Positions 4,917 through 56,729 of a DNA stretch of 64,000 bases are shown here, piece after piece. A program made the translations under genes and the position numbers. The notes below the pieces were generated by a model. The model saw only the letters and a list, made by a program, of their open reading frames with translations. It ran no database searches and was not told the origin of the DNA. Source of the DNA: Patescibacteria group bacterium (GTDB taxonomy: Bacteria > Patescibacteriota > Patescibacteriia > S139-126 > S139-133); the NCBI GenBank assembly GCA_049604715.1, contig JBMYTV010000001.1, forward strand, positions 91,610 to 155,609, read 5' to 3'. Numbering within the stretch: the stretch's first letter is position 1; each line of letters begins with the position of its first letter.

Positions 4917-6551
4917 TTAGTCTACTTCTTCTTTTTTGTCTCGGACAAAAGATGTGATCTCTTCAAATGATGACACAATAAACTTATATGGTGCCTCAAT
5001 CACATAATCAAGGAAGAAGATGAAAAAGTTGATGCGTCGTGAGTTAAGTGAGATAAAGCGACCAGCTCTGATAATTGGTAGTGTAAACAAGTCAAAGATA
5101 AAGGTGAAAATGTTCTCTCTTTTACCAAGAACATTGAGTTCACGGGCACCAAGCCTCAAGCGAATACCAAAGAATGAAATCAATGTTAGGAATAAGATAA
5201 ATAGGAGACTAGAGACAATACTGAAGTTAAGACTTCGTAGTAGGTAGATGATTAGGCCAAATGTAATCAAGTAAATGATCAAATAAAATACATTGATAAA
5301 TATCCAACTGGCTGATCCAAACTGCGATGATTTGCGGAATTTTGCAACAATGGGCTTCATCTCTTCTCCATATACTAACTTTTTCACACCTTCCAAGATT
5401 TTCTTGGTATTTTTTTCTTTTGGAACACGTGTTGTTAATATTATAAGTGCCATCAAAAATGGAGGGAATAAGACATTGATCAAGACAGAGGGGTAGTGTA
5501 TTTCCTGTAGAATAAACATGTCATACGGTACTTCAACAGCTACCGCAACAATAACTTTAGTAAGGAAAATGTAAATCACAGATCTTATAGCGCCGCGGCG
5601 AAGTTTTTTGCGGGCGTTACCGTACCGTTTGTTTGCAGCCTTTTTTATCTCGTCTTCAAGTTGATTTGTGTAGCTAAGCGTGCGTTTCAGATGATCTCTA
5701 TTCTCTGCAAAGAGATCATTTAGGATCAAAAAGTAAACAGACAAGTTGTGTAGTCGTTTTTGTAGTATTTCACCAAGGGGGTGCTTGATCTGATGACTAA
5801 TAGCATGAACGAGCTTTGGGAAGTTGTCAGCAACTTTCATGATCACATCAGTCTGCGTGCCATCCCAGTTAGGGAAATAGAATTTGAACAAATAATATCG
5901 GAGTAGTGTTTCGTCTGATTTAATAATGTTTCTGTGAATAGCAATATAAATCTGGATATTTCGTTCCTTGTCGGTCGCAGGGAAGTTTCGGATATCTATC
6001 CTGGGTTTAACTATTCTGTAGAGTGTTTCAACTAGCGCGTCTTCACGAATAGGGGGTATGATTGATTCTTCAATTTCAGCTGCCATGATCTCCCAGATGA
6101 ACTGGTGGTACTCTTTAAGTTCATTACGTTTGTAGCGCATTCCGAGCTGGTCATAAAGCGTGATGTACTTATTGATAATGTTGGCTACGTCTTTGGCTTT
6201 GTCTTCAGGAATAGCATCATTTGGGAGGTATTGAGCGCGGATAAGTTCATGTAAAAGTGTTTCAGCAATGATCCCTGGATCTTTTCTGTTCATGCTCACT
6301 ACGCGCTTTGATATACGCTCAATAGCACTGCGTCTGAGAAGGTGGTCGTCTTTGTAATCAACGCTGTAGCGTAGCTTTTCATACAAGAGCGCCATTTTGC
6401 TTGTTATATAATTGAGCTTTATTTTGGGTTCTTTGTCTTTGTATAGCTCAATACCAAAAGGACCCTCATACACTTGTGCGAGGTTCTGGATGTCACTGTC
6501 TATGTCTTGTGTGCGGGATGGTTGACTCTGTGAAACTGCTTGCAGCGGCAT
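4917..6551 (-). CDS. hypothetical protein: large soluble N-terminal region with polytopic membrane C-terminal region
   Basis: 544 aa. About 330 aa of charged alpha-helical-looking sequence, then about 5 hydrophobic segments in the last 200 aa. No confident family assignment. Confidence 0.6.
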   Translation of the reverse strand: MPLQAVSQSQPSRTQDIDSDIQNLAQVYEGPFGIELYKDKEPKIKLNYITSKMALLYEKLRYSVDYKDDHLLRRSAIERISKRVVSMNRKDPGIIAETLLHELIRAQYLPNDAIPEDKAKDVANIINKYITLYDQLGMRYKRNELKEYHQFIWEIMAAEIEESIIPPIREDALVETLYRIVKPRIDIRNFPATDKERNIQIYIAIHRNIIKSDETLLRYYLFKFYFPNWDGTQTDVIMKVADNFPKLVHAISHQIKHPLGEILQKRLHNLSVYFLILNDLFAENRDHLKRTLSYTNQLEDEIKKAANKRYGNARKKLRRGAIRSVIYIFLTKVIVAVAVEVPYDMFILQEIHYPSVLINVLFPPFLMALIILTTRVPKEKNTKKILEGVKKLVYGEEMKPIVAKFRKSSQFGSASWIFINVFYLIIYLITFGLIIYLLRSLNFSIVSSLLFILFLTLISFFGIRLRLGARELNVLGKRENIFTFIFDLFTLPIIRAGRFISLNSRRINFFIFFLDYVIEAPYKFIVSSFEEITSFVRDKKEEVD

Positions 6552-6957: not shown

Positions 6958-7496
6958 ACAAAGTGAAAAATTTCGAATTTAGACATTTTTTGTTACTGCC
7001 AAATCTTCTATCATTCAGCCGGATACCGGTTGCGATTCTGTTTGTTATTTTCCTGGCTACAGAGCAGTGGATAGCAATGTGGTTGACAGCAGCATTCGGA
7101 GCATGGACTGATTGGGCTGACGGGCACTATGCTCGGCGAAATGACGAAGTCACTGAGCTTGGGGTTATTGCTGATCCGGTTGCTGACAAAATCGGCATCG
7201 CAATAATCGTTACCTCAATGTGGTTTCTTGGTTATTTACCAACATATCTTTTTGCATTAGTTGTCGGTCGCGATGTTTTGATTGTTTCTGCAGTTGCATG
7301 GTATCGATACCGATATCCAGGTGCTTCCACTCCCATGTCTGATATTTATGGCAAAGTAGCTATATGCGCAATTGCGCTTGGTATGCTTTTGCATCTGACG
7401 CCATATTGGTTAGCTAGAGAGTGGATGATTATGATTGCGGTTTTTGTATCACTTACTCGGTATGGCTATCGTATGTATCAGTTGTCCTCCAAATAA
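6954..7496 (+). CDS. pgsA: CDP-alcohol phosphatidyltransferase (phosphatidylglycerophosphate synthase-like)
   Basis: Signature D-x2-DG-x2-AR...G-x3-D-x3-D present as TDWADGHYARRNDEVTELGVIADPVADK. Several TM helices. 180 aa. Confidence 0.8.
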   Translation: MNKVKNFEFRHFLLLPNLLSFSRIPVAILFVIFLATEQWIAMWLTAAFGAWTDWADGHYARRNDEVTELGVIADPVADKIGIAIIVTSMWFLGYLPTYLFALVVGRDVLIVSAVAWYRYRYPGASTPMSDIYGKVAICAIALGMLLHLTPYWLAREWMIMIAVFVSLTRYGYRMYQLSSK

Positions 7497-7520
7497 TACT
7501 AAAGTGAACAATAATTTTTA

Positions 7521-7548
7521 AACCAAGCACATGTGCTTGGTTTTAAGT
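7521..7548 (+). terminator. rho-independent terminator after the pgsA-like gene
   Basis: Perfect 18-nt palindrome ccaagcacatgtgcttgg (7523-7540) followed by tttt. Confidence 0.7.
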
Positions 7549-7719
7549 TGCATTTTTATTTTTTCCAAGGTAAGGTAATCGCGCACGTTTACAATATGTT
7601 TAATGCGAAAGTTTTTGACACATACATTTAGAGGAGGTGTACATTTTATAATGTGTCACAGTACGTTTTCGCACGTTCCCAGAGGCTAAAAGAGAAACTA
7701 TTGTATAGGTGATGTCCAA

Positions 7720-8115
7720 ATGAAAAAGAACAACAGAAAAAAGACTAGGAAACGTCAAGCTCGTAGAAAAAAGGCAAAAATGCGTTTATTGGTCAGAATG
7801 CCAAACACATTTTCTGCTGAGGTTCGTAGTGATTTGAGGAAGTTAATTCGACAGGTGGTCAGCAGGGTGTTAGTGGCGGAACTTCAAAAGTCTGCGTCTG
7901 TTGGTAATACTATATCTGAAAAACACTGCGAAACATTGCTTCCTTTGAGCGAGAGATCATCTCTGTATCCTAGAATTTCTAAGTACTCGTTTGTTATTAC
8001 TGTAGATAGGCTAAGCGATGGTCAATTGCGTCAGTTCAAAGATGAAGTGCTGACAAATCAGACTTTTGGAAAGGGCCAGGCCTGCCAGTTGCTTATTACC
8101 CGCATTGAAGATTAG
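7720..8115 (+). CDS. hypothetical protein with highly basic N-terminus
   Basis: 131 aa. MKKNNRKKTRKRQARRKKAK... GGTGA-type RBS upstream. No family recognised. Confidence 0.5.
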   Translation: MKKNNRKKTRKRQARRKKAKMRLLVRMPNTFSAEVRSDLRKLIRQVVSRVLVAELQKSASVGNTISEKHCETLLPLSERSSLYPRISKYSFVITVDRLSDGQLRQFKDEVLTNQTFGKGQACQLLITRIED

Positions 8116-8129
8116 AATACCTTATTTTA

Positions 8130-8165
8130 TAAAAAAATCCGTTGAAACCAACGGATTTTAATATT
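8130..8165. terminator. bidirectional terminator between convergent genes
   Basis: Hairpin atccgttg-aaac-caacggat (8137-8158). A-run on the left and T-rich run on the right. Confidence 0.65.
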
Positions 8166-9229
8166 TATACATTGAATTTAAACAACATTACATCTCCATC
8201 TTGTACCACATAGTCTTTACCTTCTTGCCTGAGAGCGCCACTATCGCGGGCCCCGGCCCAGCCATTGCCTTGAGTAAATTTGTCAAAGGCAACAGTCTCA
8301 GCTCGAATAAAACCTTTTTCAAAGTCAGTATGAATTTGTCCAGCCGCATGCGGCGCCTTGCTGCCGCGTTTTACTGTCCAGGCTCTGGTTTCTTTTTCTC
8401 CAGAAGTGAAAAATGTAATTAGCTCAAGTAGTTCATATGATGCAGTGATAAGTTTATCAAGTCCAGTTTCAGTAACGCCACTGCTCTCTAAGTATTCTCT
8501 CATTTCAGTATCGTCTAGCTCAGAAAGCTCTGCTTCAATTTTCGCACAAACCTTTATGGTATTTGGCGGTAGATCATCAGACGAACCAAGTGCGTCTTCG
8601 TCTACATTGTATGCATACAAGAGTGGTTTGCTTGTGAGTAGGTTGAGTTGTTTTAACACAGTTTGTTCCTCGTCACTATACTCAGCAGTTGAAACCCATT
8701 TACCTTGTTCAAGTATAGGATGTATTTTTTCCAGTAGTGCAAGCTCTGCTTTAGCATCTGCATCGAGTCCACCCTTTGCATTGCGGCGTGCCTTATCAAG
8801 CCTCTTATCAACGCTAGCTAGATCGGCAAACACAAGTTCGAGATTTATGGTTTCCTTATCACTTTCTGGATCTACTTTGCCATCAACGTGGATAATGTTT
8901 GGATCATGAAAATTCCTAACAACTTCCAAAATGGCATCTACTTCACGGATGTGTGATAAGAATTGATTTCCCAAACCTTCACCTTGGTGTGCATTTTTAA
9001 CCAAACCTGCAATATCAACAAATTCAATACTTGTGGGGATGATTTTTTCTGATTTGCTTATCTGCGCGAGTTGAGCGAGTCTTTCATCAGGCACCTCAAC
9101 AACACCCACATTTGGATCAATAGTACAAAATGGAAAGTTAGCCGCATCGACTTCATTGCGGGTTAGGGCTTTAAATAGAGTTGATTTGCCAACATTGGGA
9201 AGGCCGACAATGCCAATCTGAAATGACAT
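8165..9229 (-). CDS. ychF: ribosome-binding ATPase YchF (Obg-like GTPase family)
   Basis: MSFQIGIVGLPNVGKSTLFKALT (G1). NFPFCTIDPNVGVV. Full-length 354 aa with C-terminal TGS-like MLFKFNV. Confidence 0.95.
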   Translation of the reverse strand: MSFQIGIVGLPNVGKSTLFKALTRNEVDAANFPFCTIDPNVGVVEVPDERLAQLAQISKSEKIIPTSIEFVDIAGLVKNAHQGEGLGNQFLSHIREVDAILEVVRNFHDPNIIHVDGKVDPESDKETINLELVFADLASVDKRLDKARRNAKGGLDADAKAELALLEKIHPILEQGKWVSTAEYSDEEQTVLKQLNLLTSKPLLYAYNVDEDALGSSDDLPPNTIKVCAKIEAELSELDDTEMREYLESSGVTETGLDKLITASYELLELITFFTSGEKETRAWTVKRGSKAPHAAGQIHTDFEKGFIRAETVAFDKFTQGNGWAGARDSGALRQEGKDYVVQDGDVMLFKFNV

Positions 9230-30088: not shown

Positions 30089-30184
30089 ACATATTATTCA
30101 TCATTATGCTTATATAGTAGCAAAAAGCAAAGATATATGACAACTTGGCCGAAAAGTATGATGTGTTATACTAGTTATACATTT

Positions 30185-30547
30185 ATGAAGCTATTCTTAT
30201 CCATTACTATTCTAATAGCAATGTTGTTGTGCTCTTTTGGGTATCATCTCGCCGAGCATTGTATTTCAGTTACATCTGATCAGTCGGTCCTTCTCAATCA
30301 ATGTAGGGTAGATACAGTTTCTTCTTCAGTTGGATTTTTATTAGACTATCTGGCGGCTGTAAGTGTGTTACCGATTGTGTTGGGATTGGGTGCTATTGCA
30401 ACAATATTTGTAGCAATTCGAGTTCGGATCACGAATCGACTTGGGTTTAGTATACGGTTACGAAATGCATTAGAACGTTTTTATACATCCTGGCTTCGTC
30501 TTTTTGGTACTGGGGTGTACACGGCATACTACCGTATCAGTAGGTAG
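30185..30547 (+). CDS. hypothetical small membrane protein
   Basis: Internal Met MKLFLSITILIAMLL... chosen as start because the longer ORF overlaps trpS. Two or three hydrophobic segments. Confidence 0.35.
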   Translation: MKLFLSITILIAMLLCSFGYHLAEHCISVTSDQSVLLNQCRVDTVSSSVGFLLDYLAAVSVLPIVLGLGAIATIFVAIRVRITNRLGFSIRLRNALERFYTSWLRLFGTGVYTAYYRISR

Positions 30548-30581: not shown

Positions 30582-31361
30582 ATGTCAGAAAACAAACAGT
30601 CATTATTGGACTTTTTAGGACCAAAGAAAAGTTTTGGTTTTGGATTTTTAACAGCCATCGTGCTTGTTATTGTCGTCGGATTCTTTATGCAAGCTGGTGG
30701 CAATTTCCCAGGGTTTGGTGGTGAAAAGGTAACTACATTTGGCACCCCAACAGGTTCAACCGGAACAACCAACGATGGTGGTAGTGATACTACAGGCACA
30801 GCTGGCCAAGCAGCAGTTGAGCTGAATGATATTACTTCAGATGATCATATTCGTGGAGACCTAGAAGCAGCTCAGGTGGTATTAGTAGAATTTTCAGATT
30901 TGGACTGCCCATTTTGTACCCGTTTTCACTCAACCGTACAGCAAGTACAGGCTGAGTATGGTGATCAAGTTGCGTGGGTGTATAGACATTTTCCTTTAGA
31001 CTCACTACACCCAGAAGCACGTAGTAAAGCAGAAGCAACAGAATGTATTGCTGAGCTTGGTGGTAACGAAGTATTTTGGGCAGCAATTGACGCATTGTTT
31101 GATGATAGCCGTACCATTGCTCTAGCTCAAATGGGTGATTTGGCAGAGGAAGTTGGTGTGAGTCGTGCAGCATTTGATACGTGTATGGCAGAAGATCGTT
31201 ACGCAGACGAAGTGCAGAAAGACTACAATGATGCTGTTGCAAGCACAGGACGTGGTACGCCGCATACTATTGTTGTAACAAGAGATGGACAACGCATCCC
31301 ATTATCAGGTGCATTGCCAGTTGATCAAATTAAGAGTGTGATTGATCCGCTTTTACAATAA
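30582..31361 (+). CDS. membrane-anchored DsbA-family thiol:disulfide oxidoreductase
   Basis: N-terminal TM. Gly/Thr-rich linker. Thioredoxin-fold active site FSDLDCPFCTRFH (CPFC). 259 aa. Confidence 0.8.
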   Translation: MSENKQSLLDFLGPKKSFGFGFLTAIVLVIVVGFFMQAGGNFPGFGGEKVTTFGTPTGSTGTTNDGGSDTTGTAGQAAVELNDITSDDHIRGDLEAAQVVLVEFSDLDCPFCTRFHSTVQQVQAEYGDQVAWVYRHFPLDSLHPEARSKAEATECIAELGGNEVFWAAIDALFDDSRTIALAQMGDLAEEVGVSRAAFDTCMAEDRYADEVQKDYNDAVASTGRGTPHTIVVTRDGQRIPLSGALPVDQIKSVIDPLLQ

Positions 31362-31371
31362 GACTTTTTTA

Positions 31372-31394
31372 CAGGCCGCCTTTCAGGCGGCCTG
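31372..31394 (+). terminator. GC-rich hairpin between the dsbA-like and pilin-like genes (no clear U-tract)
   Basis: caggccgcc-tttca-ggcggcctg perfect 9-bp stem. T-run lies upstream rather than downstream. Confidence 0.35.
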
Positions 31395-31402
31395 CTAACC
31401 CT

Positions 31403-31762
31403 TTGCTTATGAAAAAAATATACACATGGATAATTGTATATCTATTTCTCCCAGGCATGGCACTCGCGCAACAGGCTGACTTTGGTACTGGTTATCTAAC
31501 CGGTGTAGGTCTTGGCACGTCGGATATTCGGCTTACTGTTGTGAATCTTATACGTGTAGGCCTTGGTATTTTGGGGGTGCTACTTTTGGTGCTTATTATT
31601 TATGGTGTTGTTGCATCAGCAGGTGGTGGGCGCGATGGTGGGGCAGAGCGGGGAAGAAAGATAATCTCAGGGGCTGTTATTGGACTTATTATTATAGTTG
31701 TAGCCTATGCGCTTACAACCTGGGTGTTTAATTCTATTTTGGAGGCTACTTTGACTGCATAA
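31403..31762 (+). CDS. candidate VirB2/TrbC-like pilin (signal peptide plus two hydrophobic helices)
   Basis: 119 aa. Signal peptide ending ALAQQ. Mature part has two ~22-aa hydrophobic helices separated by the charged Gly-rich loop GGGRDGGAERGRK. This topology is characteristic of type IV secretion/conjugative pilins. Confidence 0.4.
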   Translation: MLMKKIYTWIIVYLFLPGMALAQQADFGTGYLTGVGLGTSDIRLTVVNLIRVGLGILGVLLLVLIIYGVVASAGGGRDGGAERGRKIISGAVIGLIIIVVAYALTTWVFNSILEATLTA

Positions 31763-32081
31763 TATATTACTTTCCACAATGCACGTTTGTCACGTTTTGA
31801 TGTGGTTGGTACAGTATATACACAAAGTTCATTTGCAACCGAATAAACAATAATCCAATATAAGGATTTGGCACACTGTAGGTGAAGCACGTGATGATCA
31901 TTGACTGGTCACTACATGTTTCACCTACATCAAAAACTTCTTTCACGCGACCATACCTTCACAGCACCTTTTTCTCAGTTTTTACCACACCCGACCAAAT
32001 ACACAATGTCGCAAAACCTACCCCCCCACAAACGCCAAATCCTTTTTTTAATGGCTAAAAAATTTGCTATACTATATACAT

Positions 32082-32336
32082 ATGAAATCACCCTTTACTA
32101 TAGCAACAGCTGCTATACTCGCCTTCACGCCCGTGTTGGTGGTTGCGCAGTTATTTGAGACTAGTACACATACGTACTATATATCAGTGAGTAATGTTTC
32201 TTTACTTCAACGTGTATTTGGTATTTCTACATCACCTGAGGTGCTTATGTTTATGGCAATATTGTCTTTGATGGCATTTATTGGCTTCACATACATAGCT
32301 TTTGGTGTCATTGTTTTTTATTTATTTAGAGATTAA
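32082..32336 (+). CDS. small secreted/membrane protein
   Basis: MKSPFTIATAAILAFTPVLVVAQ signal peptide then a C-terminal hydrophobic helix. 84 aa. Confidence 0.4.
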   Translation: MKSPFTIATAAILAFTPVLVVAQLFETSTHTYYISVSNVSLLQRVFGISTSPEVLMFMAILSLMAFIGFTYIAFGVIVFYLFRD

Positions 32337-32341
32337 CTCAT

Positions 32342-33052
32342 ATGAAAGAAGCGCCGTTTACTATCAAGAAAGTGTTTTCCTATAGCTGGACAATGTATAA
32401 ACATCATATTGGCTTTTTGGTTTTGTTGATGCTCGCACTGTTTGGGGTATCAATGTTCTTTGGGTGGGTACAAGGTTTAGCAGAGGATTCACAGATGCTA
32501 TTGATGTTGATTACTGGTATTAGCTGGCTCGTTCAGATAATCATAGGTATGATTTTAATACATGTTGTTTTGCAACTGCTTGATACTCACAAGGCCAGCT
32601 TGCAGACAGCAACAGAAAGCTTTGTATCATTTTGGCGGTATTTAGGAGGTGTTTTGTTGACGTCGCTTATTGTGACTGCTGGCTTCTTTTTGCTTATTAT
32701 TCCTGGTGTATATCTAGCTATACGTCTACAGTTTGTTCAGTATTTGATTATAGATAAAAATTACAGCCCACTGGATGCGATTCAGAAAAGTTTTGAGCTC
32801 ACTCGTGGGGTTGTATTTGAACTGTTTTTGCTGGCAATTGTTTTCTTCGTGATCAACGTGGTCGGAGCAGCGCTCTTTGGTCTGGGCTTATTTGTGTCTG
32901 TCCCTCTTACACTTCTTGCAACCGCTTATGTATATCGTTTGCTTCTAGGTATGTCACCTGAACTTCCGGTCGTAGCAGAGGCTAGTATAGGGCCAGCTGT
33001 GCAGAGTCAAACCCCACCAGGGCAATTGTCTGACCATTCAGAAAATCAGTAA
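32342..33052 (+). CDS. hypothetical polytopic membrane protein
   Basis: 236 aa. About 5 TM segments, with a Pro/Gln-rich C-terminal tail. Confidence 0.55.
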   Translation: MKEAPFTIKKVFSYSWTMYKHHIGFLVLLMLALFGVSMFFGWVQGLAEDSQMLLMLITGISWLVQIIIGMILIHVVLQLLDTHKASLQTATESFVSFWRYLGGVLLTSLIVTAGFFLLIIPGVYLAIRLQFVQYLIIDKNYSPLDAIQKSFELTRGVVFELFLLAIVFFVINVVGAALFGLGLFVSVPLTLLATAYVYRLLLGMSPELPVVAEASIGPAVQSQTPPGQLSDHSENQ

Positions 33053-33066
33053 AAGGTTGTCTTGTC

Positions 33067-33702
33067 ATGGCAAATAAACTTTTTTCATTTTTGATAGTTA
33101 GTGCCACCGTAGTTTTGTTACTCGGTGGTTCTGTGTTTTTAGTTATATATGATTATCAGATTTACGAACCGCTTTACTCAGATTCTTTCAAGACAGGTAA
33201 GGGTGATCAGCAGTTTTTAACTGAGCTTGCTGTTGATTATATTAGTGGTATTGATGTGTCGCTGTTTCCGTTTGAACGAGAGGAAAAAGATCATTTAGAT
33301 GATGTTCGAGCTTTGGTTAGTACAACTGAAGTTGTTACAGTAGTTTCGTTAGTGTTGCTCATATTACTTATTCCTTATGCCTGGTTTTATAAAAAGGAAA
33401 AGAGGCGTGTACTTTGGGCAGTGTGGTATGGTAGCTTATCAGTTACAGTCCTCGCGCTTGTGGTTGTATTTGGGGCGCTTGTACAGTTTGATAATTTCTT
33501 TACTAATATTCATTATGTCTTATTTCCACAAGGTGGATGGGCATTTGGAGAAAATAGTTTACTTTTGCTCTTGTTCCCGCAAGAGTTCTTCTTCTACATG
33601 TTTGAGCGTATTGTCATGTTTATGCTAATGGGAGGTGCGCTTGTGTGGTTGGTTGTGTCTACGGTTCTTGGGCTTAATCCAGAAAAATTTCGATTGAATT
33701 GA
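33067..33702 (+). CDS. integral membrane protein, DUF1461/TIGR01906-like
   Basis: N-terminal TM. FPFEREEKDHLDDVRALV resembles the conserved hM-DV block of that family. C-terminal TM helices. 211 aa. Confidence 0.5.
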   Translation: MANKLFSFLIVSATVVLLLGGSVFLVIYDYQIYEPLYSDSFKTGKGDQQFLTELAVDYISGIDVSLFPFEREEKDHLDDVRALVSTTEVVTVVSLVLLILLIPYAWFYKKEKRRVLWAVWYGSLSVTVLALVVVFGALVQFDNFFTNIHYVLFPQGGWAFGENSLLLLLFPQEFFFYMFERIVMFMLMGGALVWLVVSTVLGLNPEKFRLN

Positions 33703-49661: not shown

Positions 49662-50423
49662 ATGGGTACTATAATAGCACTAGTTAATCAAAAGGGTGGT
49701 GTAGGCAAGACCACAACAGCTGTGAACTTAGCAGCTTTTTTGGCGCGGTCTGATAAGCGAGTGCTTATTGTTGACCTTGATCCACAAGCAAATGCATCAT
49801 CGGGTCTAGGTGTAAAGTTATCTGATGACGATCCGCACATTTATCATGCCATGCTCGAGCCAGGGCAGTCATCAAGTAGTGTGAAGTCAACTGCTGTGGA
49901 TAGTTTGCATGCTATGCCGTCACACCGTGATTTAGCAGGTGCTGCGGTTGAGTTGGTGAGTGTTGAAGAGCGTGAGTATCGTTTGCGTAAGGCACTTGAT
50001 GCTCTGCGTCCAATGTATGATTACATTATTATTGATTGTCCGCCTTCACTTGGTTTATTGACGATCAACGGGCTTGTAGCTGCAGATCACATTATCATCC
50101 CAGTACAGGCAGAGTATTATGCTCTTGAAGGGCTAGGGCAGCTACTTCACACAATTCAGTTAATACAAACACACCTGCATCCGGAGTTAAATATTCTTGG
50201 CGCTGTTATCACTATGTATGATCAGCGCAACAAACTATCTCAGTCAGTCATGCAAGAGCTATACGGTTACTTTCCAAATAGGATTTTCCGTAGTGTAATT
50301 CCGCGTAATGTCAGACTTGCTGAAGCGCCGTCATATGGACAGGCTATTGCAGATTATGATCCGGGTAGCAAAGGAGCTAAAGCATATGAGCGTTTAGCTC
50401 GAGAGTTGTTAACGCGTTTTTAG
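49662..50423 (+). CDS. parA: chromosome partitioning ATPase ParA/Soj
   Basis: Deviant Walker A NQKGGVGKTTTAVNLAAFLA. 253 aa. Confidence 0.9.
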   Translation: MGTIIALVNQKGGVGKTTTAVNLAAFLARSDKRVLIVDLDPQANASSGLGVKLSDDDPHIYHAMLEPGQSSSSVKSTAVDSLHAMPSHRDLAGAAVELVSVEEREYRLRKALDALRPMYDYIIIDCPPSLGLLTINGLVAADHIIIPVQAEYYALEGLGQLLHTIQLIQTHLHPELNILGAVITMYDQRNKLSQSVMQELYGYFPNRIFRSVIPRNVRLAEAPSYGQAIADYDPGSKGAKAYERLARELLTRF

Positions 50424-50464
50424 CAGTGTATACTAAGATATAACAAGTAAAAGCATATCCCTAC

Positions 50465-51442
50465 ATGCCACAAACAGGACTTGGTCGAGGCCTTGCGTCA
50501 CTTATCCCTGATGCGCCTAAGCCAGAAAAAAAAGAACAAAAGATTGCAGACCGCGCGAGTAAGGCGTGGGGCGGTGTTAATGTGCCAGTAAGTACAGGAG
50601 ATAGTGACACGGCAACTACAAAAGCAGAGAGTAAAGAGGTTCAGGCACCGAGTAAAAATCAAGTTGTTGACATTCCTGTTGAGTTGATTGACGCAAATCC
50701 GTACCAGCCGCGTAAAACATTTGAAGAGCAAGCACTTGATGACTTGGTGGCATCTATTAGTACACATGGAATTCTTCAGCCACTTGTTGTTGTTACGCGA
50801 GGTGATCGCTTTGAGCTTATTGCTGGTGAGCGGCGTTTTCGTGCAGCGCAAAAGGCAGAACTTACACATGTCCCGGTCATTACTCGCGATGTGCCTGAGC
50901 AAGAGCAACTCGAGCTTTCATTGATTGAAAATATTCAGCGACAGAATCTTAATCCAATAGAAGAAGCAGAGAGTTTCACTCAGCTTGGTGACGAGTTTTC
51001 ACTGTCGCAAGAAGAAATAGCAAAAAGAGTAGGCAAGTCACGATCTAGTGTTGCTAACACAATGAGGCTTTTACAATTACCACAAGAGGTAAAGCAATAC
51101 GTAAGGGATGGTAAGCTAACAGAAGGTCATGCAAAGGTTTTGCTTGAGCTAGATTCAGAAGCAAAACAAGTGGCGCTAGCAAAGAAGATCATCAGGCAGC
51201 AATTAACAGTCCGTGATACCACCGCAACAGTGAAGGAGGTTACAGGTAAGTCATCACCACAAAAAAAGAGCGCGACTGATGGTCGGCTCCATGCATGGGA
51301 GCAAAAGTTACAAGCACTTTACGGAACAAAGGCTCATATCAAGGATACAAAAGGAAAGGGTAGGGTTGAACTTGAGTATTTTTCAAATGAAGAGCTAATG
51401 GCGCTTCTTGATAAGCTTACGAGTGTTGATGATTTGAGTTAG
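50465..51442 (+). CDS. parB: chromosome partitioning protein ParB/Spo0J
   Basis: GLGRGLASLIP N-terminus. ParB box LELIAGERRFRAAQKAELTHVPV. HTH SQEEIAKRVGKSRSSVANTMRLL. 325 aa. Confidence 0.9.
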   Translation: MPQTGLGRGLASLIPDAPKPEKKEQKIADRASKAWGGVNVPVSTGDSDTATTKAESKEVQAPSKNQVVDIPVELIDANPYQPRKTFEEQALDDLVASISTHGILQPLVVVTRGDRFELIAGERRFRAAQKAELTHVPVITRDVPEQEQLELSLIENIQRQNLNPIEEAESFTQLGDEFSLSQEEIAKRVGKSRSSVANTMRLLQLPQEVKQYVRDGKLTEGHAKVLLELDSEAKQVALAKKIIRQQLTVRDTTATVKEVTGKSSPQKKSATDGRLHAWEQKLQALYGTKAHIKDTKGKGRVELEYFSNEELMALLDKLTSVDDLS

Positions 51443-53318: not shown

Positions 53319-55577
53319 CTATTTTTTACGCCCTCGACCTCTTTTTGGCTTTTTTGCAGCTTCTTCTAGAAGCTCCTCACATTGTGCTTGTGTTAGACTT
53401 TCAGGCTCTGTATCTTTTGGAATCTTAGCATTTGTTTTACCATCGGTAATATATGGACCATATCTGCCATGTTGTACAATGATGTCTGTGCCTTCAAATG
53501 TTTTGATGATTTTTTCAGCTTCTTTTTTCTTGTATTCAGCTACAAGCTCTCGGGCACGCGCTTCTTCAATTTCGTATGGGTCATCTTCTTTTAGTGAAAT
53601 ATATTTTTTGCCAAGTTGTAGATATGGACCATATCGACCAATATTTACAATAATGTCACCATCATCAGTATCAGAGTAGACAACGCGGGGAAGTTTTAGT
53701 AGATGAAGCGCTTGATCGAGTGTAATGGTTTCAATAGAGAGCTCTTTTGGAATTGATGCAAAAACTGGCTTTTCTTCATCATCCTTTGAGCCATGTTGTA
53801 CAAATGGTCCAAAGCGGCCAATACGCACGTAAATAGGCTTATCCGTTTCAGGATGTTTGCCAAGTTCTTTCATTTCTGTTGCTTCTTCCTTAGTAATGCT
53901 CTCTTCTTTTTCTTCAATTGTGGCGTGAAATGGTTTGTAAAATTTTTGTAGCATAGTGACACGTTCTAAGTTTCCATTTGATATTTCGTCAAATTCATTT
54001 TCGACCTCTGCGGTAAAATCAAAGTCAACAATATTTGGGAAATGCTCTACAAGGAGGTCAGTTACAAGCTTTGCAACATCAGTTGGTTTCAATGCATTGC
54101 CTTCTTTGTATACGTAGTTGCGAGCTTGTACTGTACTGATCGTAGGTGCATACGTAGATGGACGACCAATGCCAAGCTCTTCTAGTTTCTTAACCAAACT
54201 TGCCTCAGTGTATCGCCCTGGCGGCTGAGTAAAGTGTTGTTCTGGTCGGATTTTTTCAAGCTTTAGTGTTTGTCCTTTTTCTACCTGAGGAAGTTCGTTT
54301 TCTTGAATCTTATCTGGATATACTTTGAGCCAACCTGGGAAATCAATAACTGAGCCACTTACTCTAAATGTATATACATTAGCAGCGATAGCAATGGTTG
54401 TTTGTTTGGTCTTGGCTGGTTTCATTTGACTTGCGACCGCGCGCTGCCAGATAAGTTGATACAACTTAAACTGTTTGCTATCAAGATGAGTTTTTATACT
54501 CTCTGGTGTACGACTGGCACTTGTAGGTCTGACTGCTTCGTGGGCTTCTTGGGCATTTTTAGTTTTGCCAGCAAATTGTTTTACCTCTACGTATTCTTTA
54601 CCGTATTCAGACTCAACATGTGATGCTGCCTCTGCCTGAAAGCGTTTTGCTAGGGTTGTTGAGTCAGTACGCATGTATGTGATCAAACCAACAGCACCTT
54701 CGCTACCAAGGTCAATGCCTTCGTATAATTGTTGTGCTAGTACCATTGTTTGTTTTGCTGAATATCCAAGTATAGTATTAGCAGCTTGCTGTAGGGTTGA
54801 TGTAGTAAATGGCGGGTATGGTTTTTTATTGACTGTCTTTTGTGTAATGTCGTCTACAGTAAATGGCTCTTTTTCAAGTTTTTTTACAATCTCTGTAGCA
54901 TCCTTTTCGTTGTTAATTGCAAACTTGTCTAGAGTTTTACCATCTTTTTTTGCAAGTACCGCTTCAAAGTTGTCTTTGTCATTATTCAACAGAGCATGGA
55001 TTGACCAGTATTCTTGTGGGTCAAATGCTTCAATTTCGCGTTCACGTTCTACGATAAGTCTGACGGCAACAGATTGTACGCGACCAGCAGATAATCCGCG
55101 GGCAATTTTCTTCCAAAGAAGAGGAGATAGTTCGTATCCTACAAGTCTATCAAGAATACGGCGAGCTTGCTGCGCTTCTACAAGGTTGAAATCAATAGTT
55201 CGAGGGCTTTCAAGTGATTCAAGAATGGCTTCTTTAGTAATTTCATGAAATACTATTCGCTTGATTTTGTCCTCTGGGGCCTCAAAGATCTGTTGTAAGT
55301 GCCATGAAATAGCCTCACCTTCGCGATCTTCATCAGTAGCATAATAAATTTCACTAGCTTTATTGGCTAGCTTTTTTAGTTCTGTGACCTTTTTTTGTTT
55401 GTCTTTAGGGATTACATAGTCAGGTGAAAAGTCACCATCGACATCAACGCCCATTTTGCTTTTTGGTAAGTCTCTGATGTGACCAAAAGAAGACATAACA
55501 GTAAATTCTTTGCCTAAGAACTTACTTATAGTCTTTGCTTTGGTTGGAGACTCTACAATTACTAGTTTGTCTGCCAT
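53319..55577 (-). CDS. topA: DNA topoisomerase I
   Basis: TOPRIM N-terminus MADKLVIVESPTKAKTISKFLG. Active-site Tyr region. 752 aa with a Lys/Arg-rich tail instead of multiple Zn ribbons. Confidence 0.95.
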   Translation of the reverse strand: MADKLVIVESPTKAKTISKFLGKEFTVMSSFGHIRDLPKSKMGVDVDGDFSPDYVIPKDKQKKVTELKKLANKASEIYYATDEDREGEAISWHLQQIFEAPEDKIKRIVFHEITKEAILESLESPRTIDFNLVEAQQARRILDRLVGYELSPLLWKKIARGLSAGRVQSVAVRLIVEREREIEAFDPQEYWSIHALLNNDKDNFEAVLAKKDGKTLDKFAINNEKDATEIVKKLEKEPFTVDDITQKTVNKKPYPPFTTSTLQQAANTILGYSAKQTMVLAQQLYEGIDLGSEGAVGLITYMRTDSTTLAKRFQAEAASHVESEYGKEYVEVKQFAGKTKNAQEAHEAVRPTSASRTPESIKTHLDSKQFKLYQLIWQRAVASQMKPAKTKQTTIAIAANVYTFRVSGSVIDFPGWLKVYPDKIQENELPQVEKGQTLKLEKIRPEQHFTQPPGRYTEASLVKKLEELGIGRPSTYAPTISTVQARNYVYKEGNALKPTDVAKLVTDLLVEHFPNIVDFDFTAEVENEFDEISNGNLERVTMLQKFYKPFHATIEEKEESITKEEATEMKELGKHPETDKPIYVRIGRFGPFVQHGSKDDEEKPVFASIPKELSIETITLDQALHLLKLPRVVYSDTDDGDIIVNIGRYGPYLQLGKKYISLKEDDPYEIEEARARELVAEYKKKEAEKIIKTFEGTDIIVQHGRYGPYITDGKTNAKIPKDTEPESLTQAQCEELLEEAAKKPKRGRGRKK

Positions 55578-55637: not shown

Positions 55638-56729
55638 TTATACAATTTTGACGTACTGCCGTCCGCCAGTATCAGTGATGTACCCTTTCATTTCTAGGTG
55701 GGTAATAAGGCGTGCTGTACTTGCTGCATCAAGGCCTGTTTTTTGTACAATAGAGTCAAATGAGGTAGGTTCAAATGATATAAATGCATAAAGAGCCTCC
55801 TCTTGTTCAGTAAGTAGATCGCGGGGTATTGCTTTGTCTTTCATGCTATGATCAGAGATTCCTAAAAGAGAAAGCACATCATCAGCAGAGGATACGACAG
55901 CCGCGCCTTTTTGAAGTAGTGCATGGCATCCAGTAGACAGTGGTGAGAACATAGAGCCAGGCACTGCTCCAACTGATCGGTTGTATTCTAGTGCTTGGTA
56001 GGCAGTGATATTTGCTCCTGACTTTTGTGCTGCTTCAATAACCAAGGTTGCCTGAGAAAGTCCAGCTATGATTCGGTTTCGTTGCGGAAAATGAGTTTTT
56101 AGAGGGGTTGCGCCTATAGGTCTCTCTGATACAAGCAGTCCACCCTCACTTATAATCTTTTTAGCTATGAATCTATTGTGAGATGGGTATATGCTGTTGG
56201 TATCAAGGCCAGATGCAAGTACAGCTATAGTACGTCCATTTCTGGTAAGGCATGTTGTATGTGCATGCGCATCAACTCCAAGAGCCAGTCCAGATACAAT
56301 AGTTGCCCCAGCACGTATAGCAGATGGTACAAGTGTTTCGACAACTTGTTTGCCATATGGTGACATTTTTCGTGTACCAACTACTGACAAAAGCAGCTCA
56401 TCGTCCCCAAGGTCGCCTTTGTAATATAGCACTGGGGGAGCGTCAGGAATTTCTTTAAGTAGTTTTGGATAGGCTTCATCTTCAAGTGTGACAGCAAGTA
56501 CTTTATTTTGTACAAGTTCTGCAATAAGGCTGTCAGGATTTACTTCACTGCGCCTGAGTGTAATCTCTTGGGCTATGTTAGATGGAATGCCGGCAGTTAT
56601 AAAGTCACCATGCGGGGCATGCCAGGCTTCTTCAAGTGAATTAAAGTGTTTACGTATTTTTTGAAAACGCACTGGGCCAATGTTTGGAATTTTTGTAAAC
56701 GCTAGCCAATACGATAGTTCTGAGTTCAT
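55638..56729 (-). CDS. dprA: DNA-processing protein DprA (Smf)
   Basis: N-terminal SAM-like LSYWLAFTKIPNIGPVRFQKI. Rossmann-like core. Classic dprA-topA arrangement. 363 aa. Confidence 0.9.
   Translation of the reverse strand: MNSELSYWLAFTKIPNIGPVRFQKIRKHFNSLEEAWHAPHGDFITAGIPSNIAQEITLRRSEVNPDSLIAELVQNKVLAVTLEDEAYPKLLKEIPDAPPVLYYKGDLGDDELLLSVVGTRKMSPYGKQVVETLVPSAIRAGATIVSGLALGVDAHAHTTCLTRNGRTIAVLASGLDTNSIYPSHNRFIAKKIISEGGLLVSERPIGATPLKTHFPQRNRIIAGLSQATLVIEAAQKSGANITAYQALEYNRSVGAVPGSMFSPLSTGCHALLQKGAAVVSSADDVLSLLGISDHSMKDKAIPRDLLTEQEEALYAFISFEPTSFDSIVQKTGLDAASTARLITHLEMKGYITDTGGRQYVKIV

Follow-up and report, generated by a model that had tools for sequence, protein, structure and literature searches.

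A probable solitary and divergent VirB2-like pilin gene among conserved membrane-protein genes of a Patescibacteria chromosome

Introduction

Do a pilin-like gene and the small membrane-protein genes around it make up one apparatus, or does the pilin stand on its own? The question is raised by a 64-kb piece of a Patescibacteria (candidate phyla radiation, CPR) chromosome, referred to below as the window, which is part of a 208,711-bp contig, has a GC content of ~0.40 and contains housekeeping genes that are small and closely spaced. In it, a gene for a DsbA-like oxidoreductase is followed by one for a VirB2/TrbC-like pilin candidate and then by genes for an 84-amino-acid (aa) protein, a multi-transmembrane (TM) protein and a DUF1461-like protein. 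A preliminary description of this DNA had read the five together as possibly part of a surface appendage or secretion/uptake apparatus.

VirB2 and TraA pilins have a cleaved leader and two hydrophobic helices. Between the helices is a short basic loop, which lies on the cytoplasmic side and later in the pilus lumen. In Patescibacteria, VirB2-like pilins of the Pfam family PF18895 (T4SS_pilin) and arrays of 2 to 11 of their genes are widespread, and such pilins lie near virB4 in 1135 of 1948 assemblies, or 58% (PMC12102498). The predicted pilin series of Ca. Southlakia epibionticum ML1 is located inside the type IV secretion system (T4SS) cluster and is essential (PMC10633639; reviewed in PMC12857230).

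We report here that these genes do not form a secretion or pilus apparatus; the pilin stands alone among ordinary membrane-protein genes. The reading that we favour, at a probability of about 0.75, is that the pilin is a solitary, divergent PF18895 member that would serve a T4SS pilus-like structure, and that its neighbours are an unrelated backbone. Related loci are numbered L001 to L094, database homologues of the pilin carry P-numbers, and the gene of the 84-aa protein is called orf84. All relatives are Patescibacteria metagenome-assembled genomes (MAGs); for the MAG of the window itself, one further contig was also read.

Results

The pilin gene and its product

31409 to 31762, + strand: predicted VirB2-like T4SS_pilin (PF18895) protein of 117 aa, from the PF18895 match, homologues, the codon-position pattern and an AlphaFold2 (AF2) model; a Sec signal peptide and the conserved mature N-terminus QADFGTGYLTGVGLGTSDIR precede TM1 and TM2, which flank a basic Gly-rich loop.

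This open reading frame (ORF) had been listed as a 119-aa protein at 31403-31762. The ORF is there, but its start was misplaced by two codons: the real start is ATG 31409, not TTG 31403, because the copy in L005, whose protein is 96% identical, has a 1-nt indel between the two codons, and because a second, independent gene call on the same DNA likewise gives 117 aa. An exact-sequence look-up of the TTG-start 119-aa version found no record, since its start codon is wrong.

Compared with L005, the pilin differs at 11, 3 and 62 sites at codon positions 1, 2 and 3, and the DNA is 78% identical. The frame is intact and the length unchanged in L005, L006, L007 and L009. On these comparisons, 31409-31762 is a genuine protein-coding gene under strong purifying selection. 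The opposite reading, that it is a chance hydrophobic ORF or the decaying pseudogene of an array gene, could appeal to a sub-threshold Pfam score, a degenerate loop motif and the solitary position, but the codon pattern, the identity of the protein relative to that of the DNA, and the intact frames leave it with a practically negligible probability.

The signal peptide, two hydrophobic helices and short charged Gly-rich loop that had been described were borne out by hydropathy and charge counts. Cleavage is placed between MKKIYTWIIVYLFLPGMALA and the following Q, and the mature N-terminal segment is 20 residues long. The hydrophobic stretches cover residues 40-75 and 81-113, and the loop between them, GGGRDGGAERGRK, has 4 K/R. 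By the positive-inside rule, the loop would be cytoplasmic and the N-terminal segment outside. The AF2 model has helices at 2-20, 42-73 and 80-118, with a pLDDT of 76.8. There is no cysteine in the protein, and nearly all homologues likewise have none. The window protein has the PF18895-type architecture, namely a cleavable signal peptide, two helices and a short polar loop in 100-160 aa.

Family membership of the pilin

The window protein matched PF18895 with E=1.3e-4 and 22.4 bits over profile positions 15-71 of 71. Among 5.8 billion clusters searched, 19 homologues were found, with E-values from 2e-51 to 7e-4; PF18895 is present in 13 of them, one of which has the TrbC/VirB2 domain PF04956 as well. 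Homologues P0005 to P0013 are 55-65% identical to the window protein at 79-96% query coverage (E 1e-30 to 8e-24), and PF18895 was found in all of them. The domain was also matched by 19 of 20 aligned relatives and by 119 of 121 diverse relatives from related loci; for PF04956 the figures were 3 of 20 and 15 of 121, with a best E of 3.3e-8. The PF18895 consensus reads YGGFxWMTAxGNE...AK...IGLIIxxxAYA, and its C-terminal half (IGLIIxxxAYA) is retained in the window protein as IGLIIIVVAYAL.

Several results weigh against this assignment. The score of 22.4 bits is less than the PF18895 gathering cut-off of 26.6. The consensus loop YGGFxWMTAxGNE is absent, and the window protein has YGVVASAGGGRDGG at this place. 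No match to PF04956 was obtained at E<=1, and none to any NCBIfam pilin model or to anything else in NCBIfam. Profile searches of the PDB, made with a narrow and a broad family profile, found no solved conjugative pilin, only insignificant membrane-helix matches, and fold searches yielded generic helical hairpins only.

The low score can be traced to the loop: it is sub-threshold because the usual motif of this half has been swapped for the Gly/Arg-rich VVASAGGGRDGGAERGRK. As the fold searches gave only generic hairpins, structure neither backs nor refutes the pilin reading. The proposal to check the protein with pilin hidden Markov models thus had a mixed outcome, positive but sub-threshold for PF18895 and negative for a direct match to PF04956; the VirB2/TrbC-like identity itself held up through the relatives. 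Because full-length homologues carry the domain, despite the protein's own score below the cut-off, we consider the window protein very probably a divergent member of the PF18895 VirB2-like pilin family of Patescibacteria. Its tie to VirB2/TrbC would be transitive, by way of sequence profiles.

Within the family, the window protein belongs to a subfamily whose mature N-terminus is highly conserved (ADFGTGY..GLGT.DIR). The members of this subfamily are either solitary or head an array, where a longer pilin-like gene comes directly before them, and a neighbour-joining tree did not cleanly separate solitary from array-head copies. The window pilin is the sole match of the family profile within the 64 kb.

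The neighbouring genes exist without the pilin

30582 to 31361, + strand: membrane-anchored DsbA/BdbD-type thiol:disulfide oxidoreductase of 259 aa (PF13462, PF01323, CPFC).

31372 to 31394, + strand: GC-rich perfect 10-bp hairpin CAGGCCGCCT-TTC-AGGCGGCCTG, an inverted repeat between the dsbA stop and the pilin ATG.

31763 to 32081, + strand: constrained non-coding spacer of 319 nt (conservation, fold, indels).

31877 to 31929, + strand: long hairpin in the spacer, with 24-nt arms and a 5-nt loop (inverted repeat and fold).

32082 to 32336, + strand: orf84, predicted 84-aa protein with signal peptide and C-terminal TM anchor, start ATG 32082.

32342 to 33052, + strand: DUF975/UPF0259(YciC)-like multi-TM protein of 236 aa (sub-threshold profile matches).

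33067 to 33702, + strand: Lit/DUF1461-family membrane protein of 211 aa (PF07314, 67.1 bits against a cut-off of 24).

The string of ORFs is present as had been described, with all of them co-oriented on the + strand. Their common orientation and close spacing, together with the DsbA gene found next to the pilin in L005 and L006 and 3-4 kb away in L002, L011, L012 and L015, are what can be said for a dedicated appendage or secretion/uptake operon. Tight gene packing is usual in such small genomes.

The same backbone was found without the pilin. In L092/L093 the order is DsbA (68% identical), a 90-nt spacer, an orf84 homologue, a 117-aa coiled-coil protein and a DUF975-like gene. In L094 it is an orf84 homologue, the 117-aa protein, DUF975/UPF0259, (SpoU), Lit, one further gene (x), TMEM175 and PD-(D/E)XK. 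Since the string is present in L092, L093 and L094 without a pilin, it is conserved genome backbone. In these pilin-less relatives, all that the spacer between dsbA and orf84 holds is a terminator hairpin and, 8 nt from the ATG, a -10 box. The window retains both elements, the hairpin at 31372-31394 and TATACT at 32066-32071, and has the pilin gene and 319 nt between them; a terminator-type hairpin and a separate promoter thus flank the pilin.

The pilin orthologues, for their part, have other neighbours. That of L007 (78% identical) is flanked by a DUF1801 gene and an unknown gene, and that of L004 adjoins a tyrosine recombinase. In L002, L011, L012 and L015, DsbA and Lgt lie upstream at the distance given above and the downstream genes differ, and in L001, L008 and L010 the orthologue heads an array.

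When the large proteins of the 64-kb window were scanned with Pfam and the remainder for Walker-A motifs, no VirB4, VirB11 or VirD4-type ATPase was detected, as the preliminary description had stated for VirB4 and VirB11, and there is no second pilin-family member. The proposed partners of the pilin include no ATPase or channel component and belong to general families. Because the pilin, orf84, DUF975-like and Lit-like proteins contain no cysteine, they are not DsbA substrates. The flanking dsbA, orf84, DUF975-like, lit-like, MFS and TMEM175 genes are, on gene order and family matches, an unrelated conserved envelope-housekeeping backbone. The proposal that DsbA, the pilin and the membrane proteins after it form one apparatus therefore did not survive the comparison, and we consider it very improbable.

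The DsbA-like gene and the hairpin upstream of the pilin

A membrane-anchored CPFC oxidoreductase does precede the pilin, as had been noted. The protein scored 65.4 bits with PF13462 and 63.3 bits with PF01323 (cut-offs 23.2 and 25.6). It has one N-terminal hydrophobic anchor (residues 14-44), followed by a Gly/Thr-rich linker, an active site C109-P-F-C112 and cysteines at 109, 112, 155 and 201. Orthologues are 86% identical in L005 and, as given above, 68% in L092.

Could DsbA and the pilin be functionally coupled, like the TrbB/TraF thioredoxins in F-type pilus assembly? The two genes stand side by side, DsbA turns up again near solitary orthologues, and read-through from dsbA is possible, with the hairpin only 14 nt from the pilin start. 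Matches to TIGR02738 TrbB, TIGR02740 TraF-like and PF13728 TraF were far under their cut-offs (E=0.12, 0.13 and 0.19), whereas those to generic DsbA/Thioredoxin_4 reached 1e-17. The pilin and nearly all its homologues offer no cysteine, and DsbA is just as adjacent to orf84 where the pilin is absent. Such a coupling is hardly credible. The upstream DsbA is a general housekeeping enzyme, not pilin-specific, and its repeated proximity to the pilin, directly upstream in L005/L006 and farther upstream of the solitary orthologues, is best read as inherited gene order.

The hairpin between the two genes is kept in L005/L006, with its stem preserved and its loop changed, and an equivalent terminator hairpin lies 3' of dsbA in L092 and L094. 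Its probable role is that of the dsbA terminator or of an attenuator.

Just 5' of dsbA, at 30137-30547 (+), there is a 136-aa ORF with two hydrophobic segments, four cysteines and no family match, which was also gene-called in L089. Its product could be a DsbA substrate or redox partner.

The spacer downstream of the pilin

The spacer at 31763-32081 is 82% identical to that of L005/L006, a comparison that rests on two distinct sequences. It is constrained, because this identity exceeds the ~48% found at third codon positions of the neighbouring pilin coding sequence, and it is non-coding because of 1-nt indels relative to L005/L006. The + strand folds with z=-5.4 and the - strand with z=-1.3. 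The long hairpin at 31877-31929 is surrounded by an 11-nt outer stem (31861-31871 / 32034-32044), after which comes T7; in L005 the arms of the hairpin are kept and the loop varies. No Rfam match was found in the spacer. It could be a structured 3' untranslated region or terminator region, a small RNA or regulatory DNA, and as a strand-asymmetric element of 319 nt it may represent a lineage-specific structured RNA. A repeated miniature inverted-repeat transposable element was considered and ruled out, as the spacer is single-copy in the window and in all loci.

At the 3' end of the spacer, the -10 box TATACT (32066-32071) is 8 nt ahead of the orf84 ATG. The same arrangement, with TATACT or TATAAT, was found in L092 (470-486) and L094 (~90-108). 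Such a short distance between box and start codon suggests that transcripts in this lineage have no leader or hardly any.

The genes downstream

The 84-aa signal-peptide protein of the preliminary description is encoded by a real gene: its true start, the second one corrected here, is ATG 32082, its differences from L005 by codon position are 9/1/24, and the product is identical to NCBI ACPGO5_00700. The family is tiny (7 matches in 1.84 billion representatives) and has a conserved motif YI...SLLQ.VFG. In L092/L093/L094 its homologues adjoin DUF975-like genes (L092 484-1877; L094 106-1546), with the 117-aa coiled-coil protein in between, so that orf84 is, by its synteny, a conserved neighbour of the DUF975-like gene and not of the pilin. 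Some members of both this family and that of the pilin have ...AQ|..DFGT-like N-termini, and a degenerate pilin paralogue was therefore considered; it was rejected at an hhalign probability of 12%, with only the signal-peptide end aligning.

The "5-TM protein" at 32342-33052 indeed shows ~5-6 hydrophobic stretches. Its Pfam matches, GPDPase_memb among them, are all sub-threshold: 26.9 bits against a cut-off of 31.4 for UPF0259, 21.5 against 34.8 for DUF975 and 23.9 against 29.6 for another. It also matched YciC NF002774 with E=8e-8 and is 43% identical to its L092 orthologue; the L092 and L094 orthologues carry DUF975/UPF0259 matches on record.

The DUF1461-like protein was correctly recognised, its Pfam family PF07314 now being named Lit. 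Its NCBIfam scores are below the cut-offs (TIGR01906, 49 against 74.8; the Lit equivalog, 31.1 against 400), so that the 211-aa protein may be taken as a Lit-family member whose enzymatic function as Lit is only putative. On its 3' side follow, without gaps, genes for an MFS transporter, a TMEM175-type channel, a PD-(D/E)XK nuclease and a YgjP-like metallopeptidase.

Other features of the window

The Rfam scan of the window and spacer found three tRNAs, none of them at the pilin locus. No close relatives and no copy of the spacer hairpin were found in a JGI metagenome search. A search of viral contigs found no relatives, and therefore phage carriage is not indicated. Elsewhere in the window there are dprA adjoining topA, and parA/parB (55638-56729, -; 53319-55577, -; 49662-51442, +); dprA, for the DNA-processing protein of natural transformation, is the sole competence-related gene seen there. 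A 544-aa protein encoded at 4917-6551 (-) is soluble in its N-terminal half and multi-TM in its C-terminal half, with no Pfam match and no Walker A.

A pilin array in the same MAG and the wider family

The window contig and the contig of P0011 are from one MAG, because their proteins share the ACPGO5 prefix (P0011, 64% identical to the window pilin, is ACPGO5_03895) and both contigs recur in the Logan assembly of SRR27204692. In the P0011 locus, L001, the order is NTP_transferase, SBP_bac_1, a 208-aa pilin-like gene, P0011, three more PF18895 genes and a GspE/PilB-type ATPase, and there are five consecutive matches of the family profile. The array paralogue at 6121-6600 of L001 matched NF045849, the Mbov_0395 family, with E=9e-9 and 34.9 bits (cut-off 40); this match would link the family to monoderm conjugation systems.

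The ATPase beside this array (7291-8481) has 396 aa and is of the GspE/PilB type without the long N-terminal domain. As a candidate VirB11 it was rejected, scoring 503 and 482 bits as GspE/PilB versus 48 as VirB11. Among 87 loci, such an ATPase adjoins the array only in L001, and the adjacency is treated as coincidental. The gene indicates type IV pilus or type II secretion system-like machinery in the genome.

These 87 related loci, taken with ±10 kb each and picked by similarity to one subfamily, served as a sample of the wider family. In them the family occurs mostly as tandem arrays, most often of 5-6 genes and at most of 13, in agreement with the arrays of 2-11 genes in the literature. 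The commonest neighbour of the arrays is an SBP_bac_1 (solute-binding protein, SBP) gene. Of the 57 arrays having upstream sequence, 33 have it immediately 5' of a pilin-family gene, often with an overlap of 3-10 nt; instances are L001 2692-6600 and others among L009-L091. Other recurrent neighbours are GT2, NTP_transferase, PBP1, Lgt, PMT_2 and Wzy, that is, envelope and housekeeping functions. No ABC permease adjoins SBP_bac_1 within 10 kb. The coupling of SBP and array is not mentioned in the Patescibacteria T4SS paper, and a literature search on it found nothing.

Proteins of 500-850 aa with a Walker-A motif beside the arrays were examined as VirB4 or type IV coupling protein (T4CP) candidates and proved to be FtsK, FtsH, SMC, a ChlI-like ATPase, IF-2 and ABC-F. 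Records L011, L012, L017-L019 and many more are titled "uncultured Gammaproteobacteria bacterium" (binchicken co-assemblies), yet hold pilin arrays and gene content typical of Patescibacteria, and these titles appear to be mislabelled.

Discussion

Does the pilin serve a T4SS?

From what is known of VirB2/TraA pilins and from the Patescibacteria papers cited above, the following course can be proposed for the window pilin. The precursor would enter the membrane by way of Sec, signal peptidase I would cleave it after ALA, and the mature protein of ~96 aa would build up as a membrane pool. It could then join the pilus-like structure that is ascribed to the Patescibacteria T4SS, either in addition to other subunits or in their place; the machinery for that structure would be encoded elsewhere in the genome. 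The conserved N-terminus would be exposed in a VirB2-type filament; a conserved exposed N-terminus would point to a conserved interaction and against antigenic variation.

Two findings speak against this role. In none of the 87 loci was VirB4, VirB6 or a coupling protein seen at up to 10 kb, and the physical link of this branch of the family to a T4SS is therefore putative. The literature yielded no observed pilus composed of these PF18895 proteins. We give the actual role of the window protein in a T4SS pilus a little better than an even chance.

The alternative is that the window protein, and perhaps much of this PF18895 branch, is no T4SS pilus subunit but a small scaffold, in the membrane or at the surface, which acts together with a solute-binding protein or in other envelope functions, the window copy being a stand-alone paralogue. 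The SBP gene immediately upstream of so many arrays, with its short overlaps, fits such a scaffold, as do the envelope and housekeeping neighbours and the consistent lack of VirB4, VirB6 and T4CP within 10 kb. The would-be surface-exposed mature N-terminus is, moreover, the most conserved part of the subfamily and not the most variable. Against it stand the essential pilin series inside the T4SS cluster of a cultured Saccharibacterium (PMC10633639) and the pilins near virB4 in more than half of the assemblies (PMC12102498). The TrbC/VirB2 matches of 15 of the 121 relatives also speak against a scaffold, no ABC permease stands beside the SBP, and the loci span only ±10 kb and were selected by similarity to one subfamily. 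We regard the scaffold as unlikely.

A bolder form of the idea is that many of the Patescibacteria "T4SS_pilin" arrays, including the array of the same MAG and the solitary paralogue, are a separate and so far undescribed envelope module translationally coupled to the SBP and not a VirB4-driven pilus. We hold this to be quite improbable. Such a module may be a surface structure that presents or anchors the binding protein for scavenging from the host. The archaeal bindosome offers a loose conceptual parallel, with no homology implied.

Comparison with known systems

The favoured reading, a solitary and divergent pilin that would serve a T4SS pilus-like structure, places the window protein closest to the PF18895 pilins of Patescibacteria, such as the S. 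epibionticum series and the "Sec secreted array" of TM7x (PMC12102498, PMC10633639, PMC12857230). With these it shares full-length homology and a patescibacterial host, a Sec signal peptide and two-helix hairpin in about 100-140 aa, and the IGLIIxxxAYA C-terminal motif. As in those organisms, the genome also holds a tandem array of divergent paralogues. Unlike them, the window copy is solitary, with no T4SS gene or paralogue within 64 kb, has a Gly/Arg-rich loop in place of GFxWMTAxGNE and a score under the cut-off, and lies in the solitary or array-head sub-branch defined by its mature N-terminus.

With the TrbC/VirB2 pilins (PF04956; T-pilin, RP4 TrbC, F TraA) the protein shares the VirB2/TraA topology and, through some of its relatives, the domain match. 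It has no PF04956 match of its own and no profile or fold match to solved pilins. The TrbC/VirB2 pilins are those of diderm T4SSs, whereas the host of the window is monoderm and the gene has no adjacent virB operon. The Mbov_0395 family (NF045849) of Mycoplasma integrative and conjugative elements (ICEs) resembles it in being small and pilin-like, with two TM segments, and in belonging to a monoderm system, of the MPF-FATA type, and the paralogue from the same MAG matches that family. However, that match is under the cut-off, the window protein has none, and there is no ICE context. As for the upstream gene, it is a bona fide DsbA-like gene with CPFC, of the DsbA/BdbD type; it is no relative of the F-type TrbB/TraF (E>0.1), and its neighbours have no cysteines to oxidise.

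Significance

The main outcome of this work is one of annotation: what the locus holds is a single, divergent paralogue of the VirB2-like pilins, overlooked at standard thresholds, and no hidden secretion locus. The window pilin adds a new, divergent and solitary member to a family that is very abundant and has been described before. Genes of this family occur as scattered, conserved solitary copies besides the arrays, and among the sampled loci the operon partner of many arrays is a solute-binding protein and not VirB4. These observations have a modest bearing on how ultrasmall epibiotic Patescibacteria build their host-contact machinery. If the coupling to solute-binding proteins is true genome-wide, naming the whole of so abundant a family "T4SS pilin" would become questionable.

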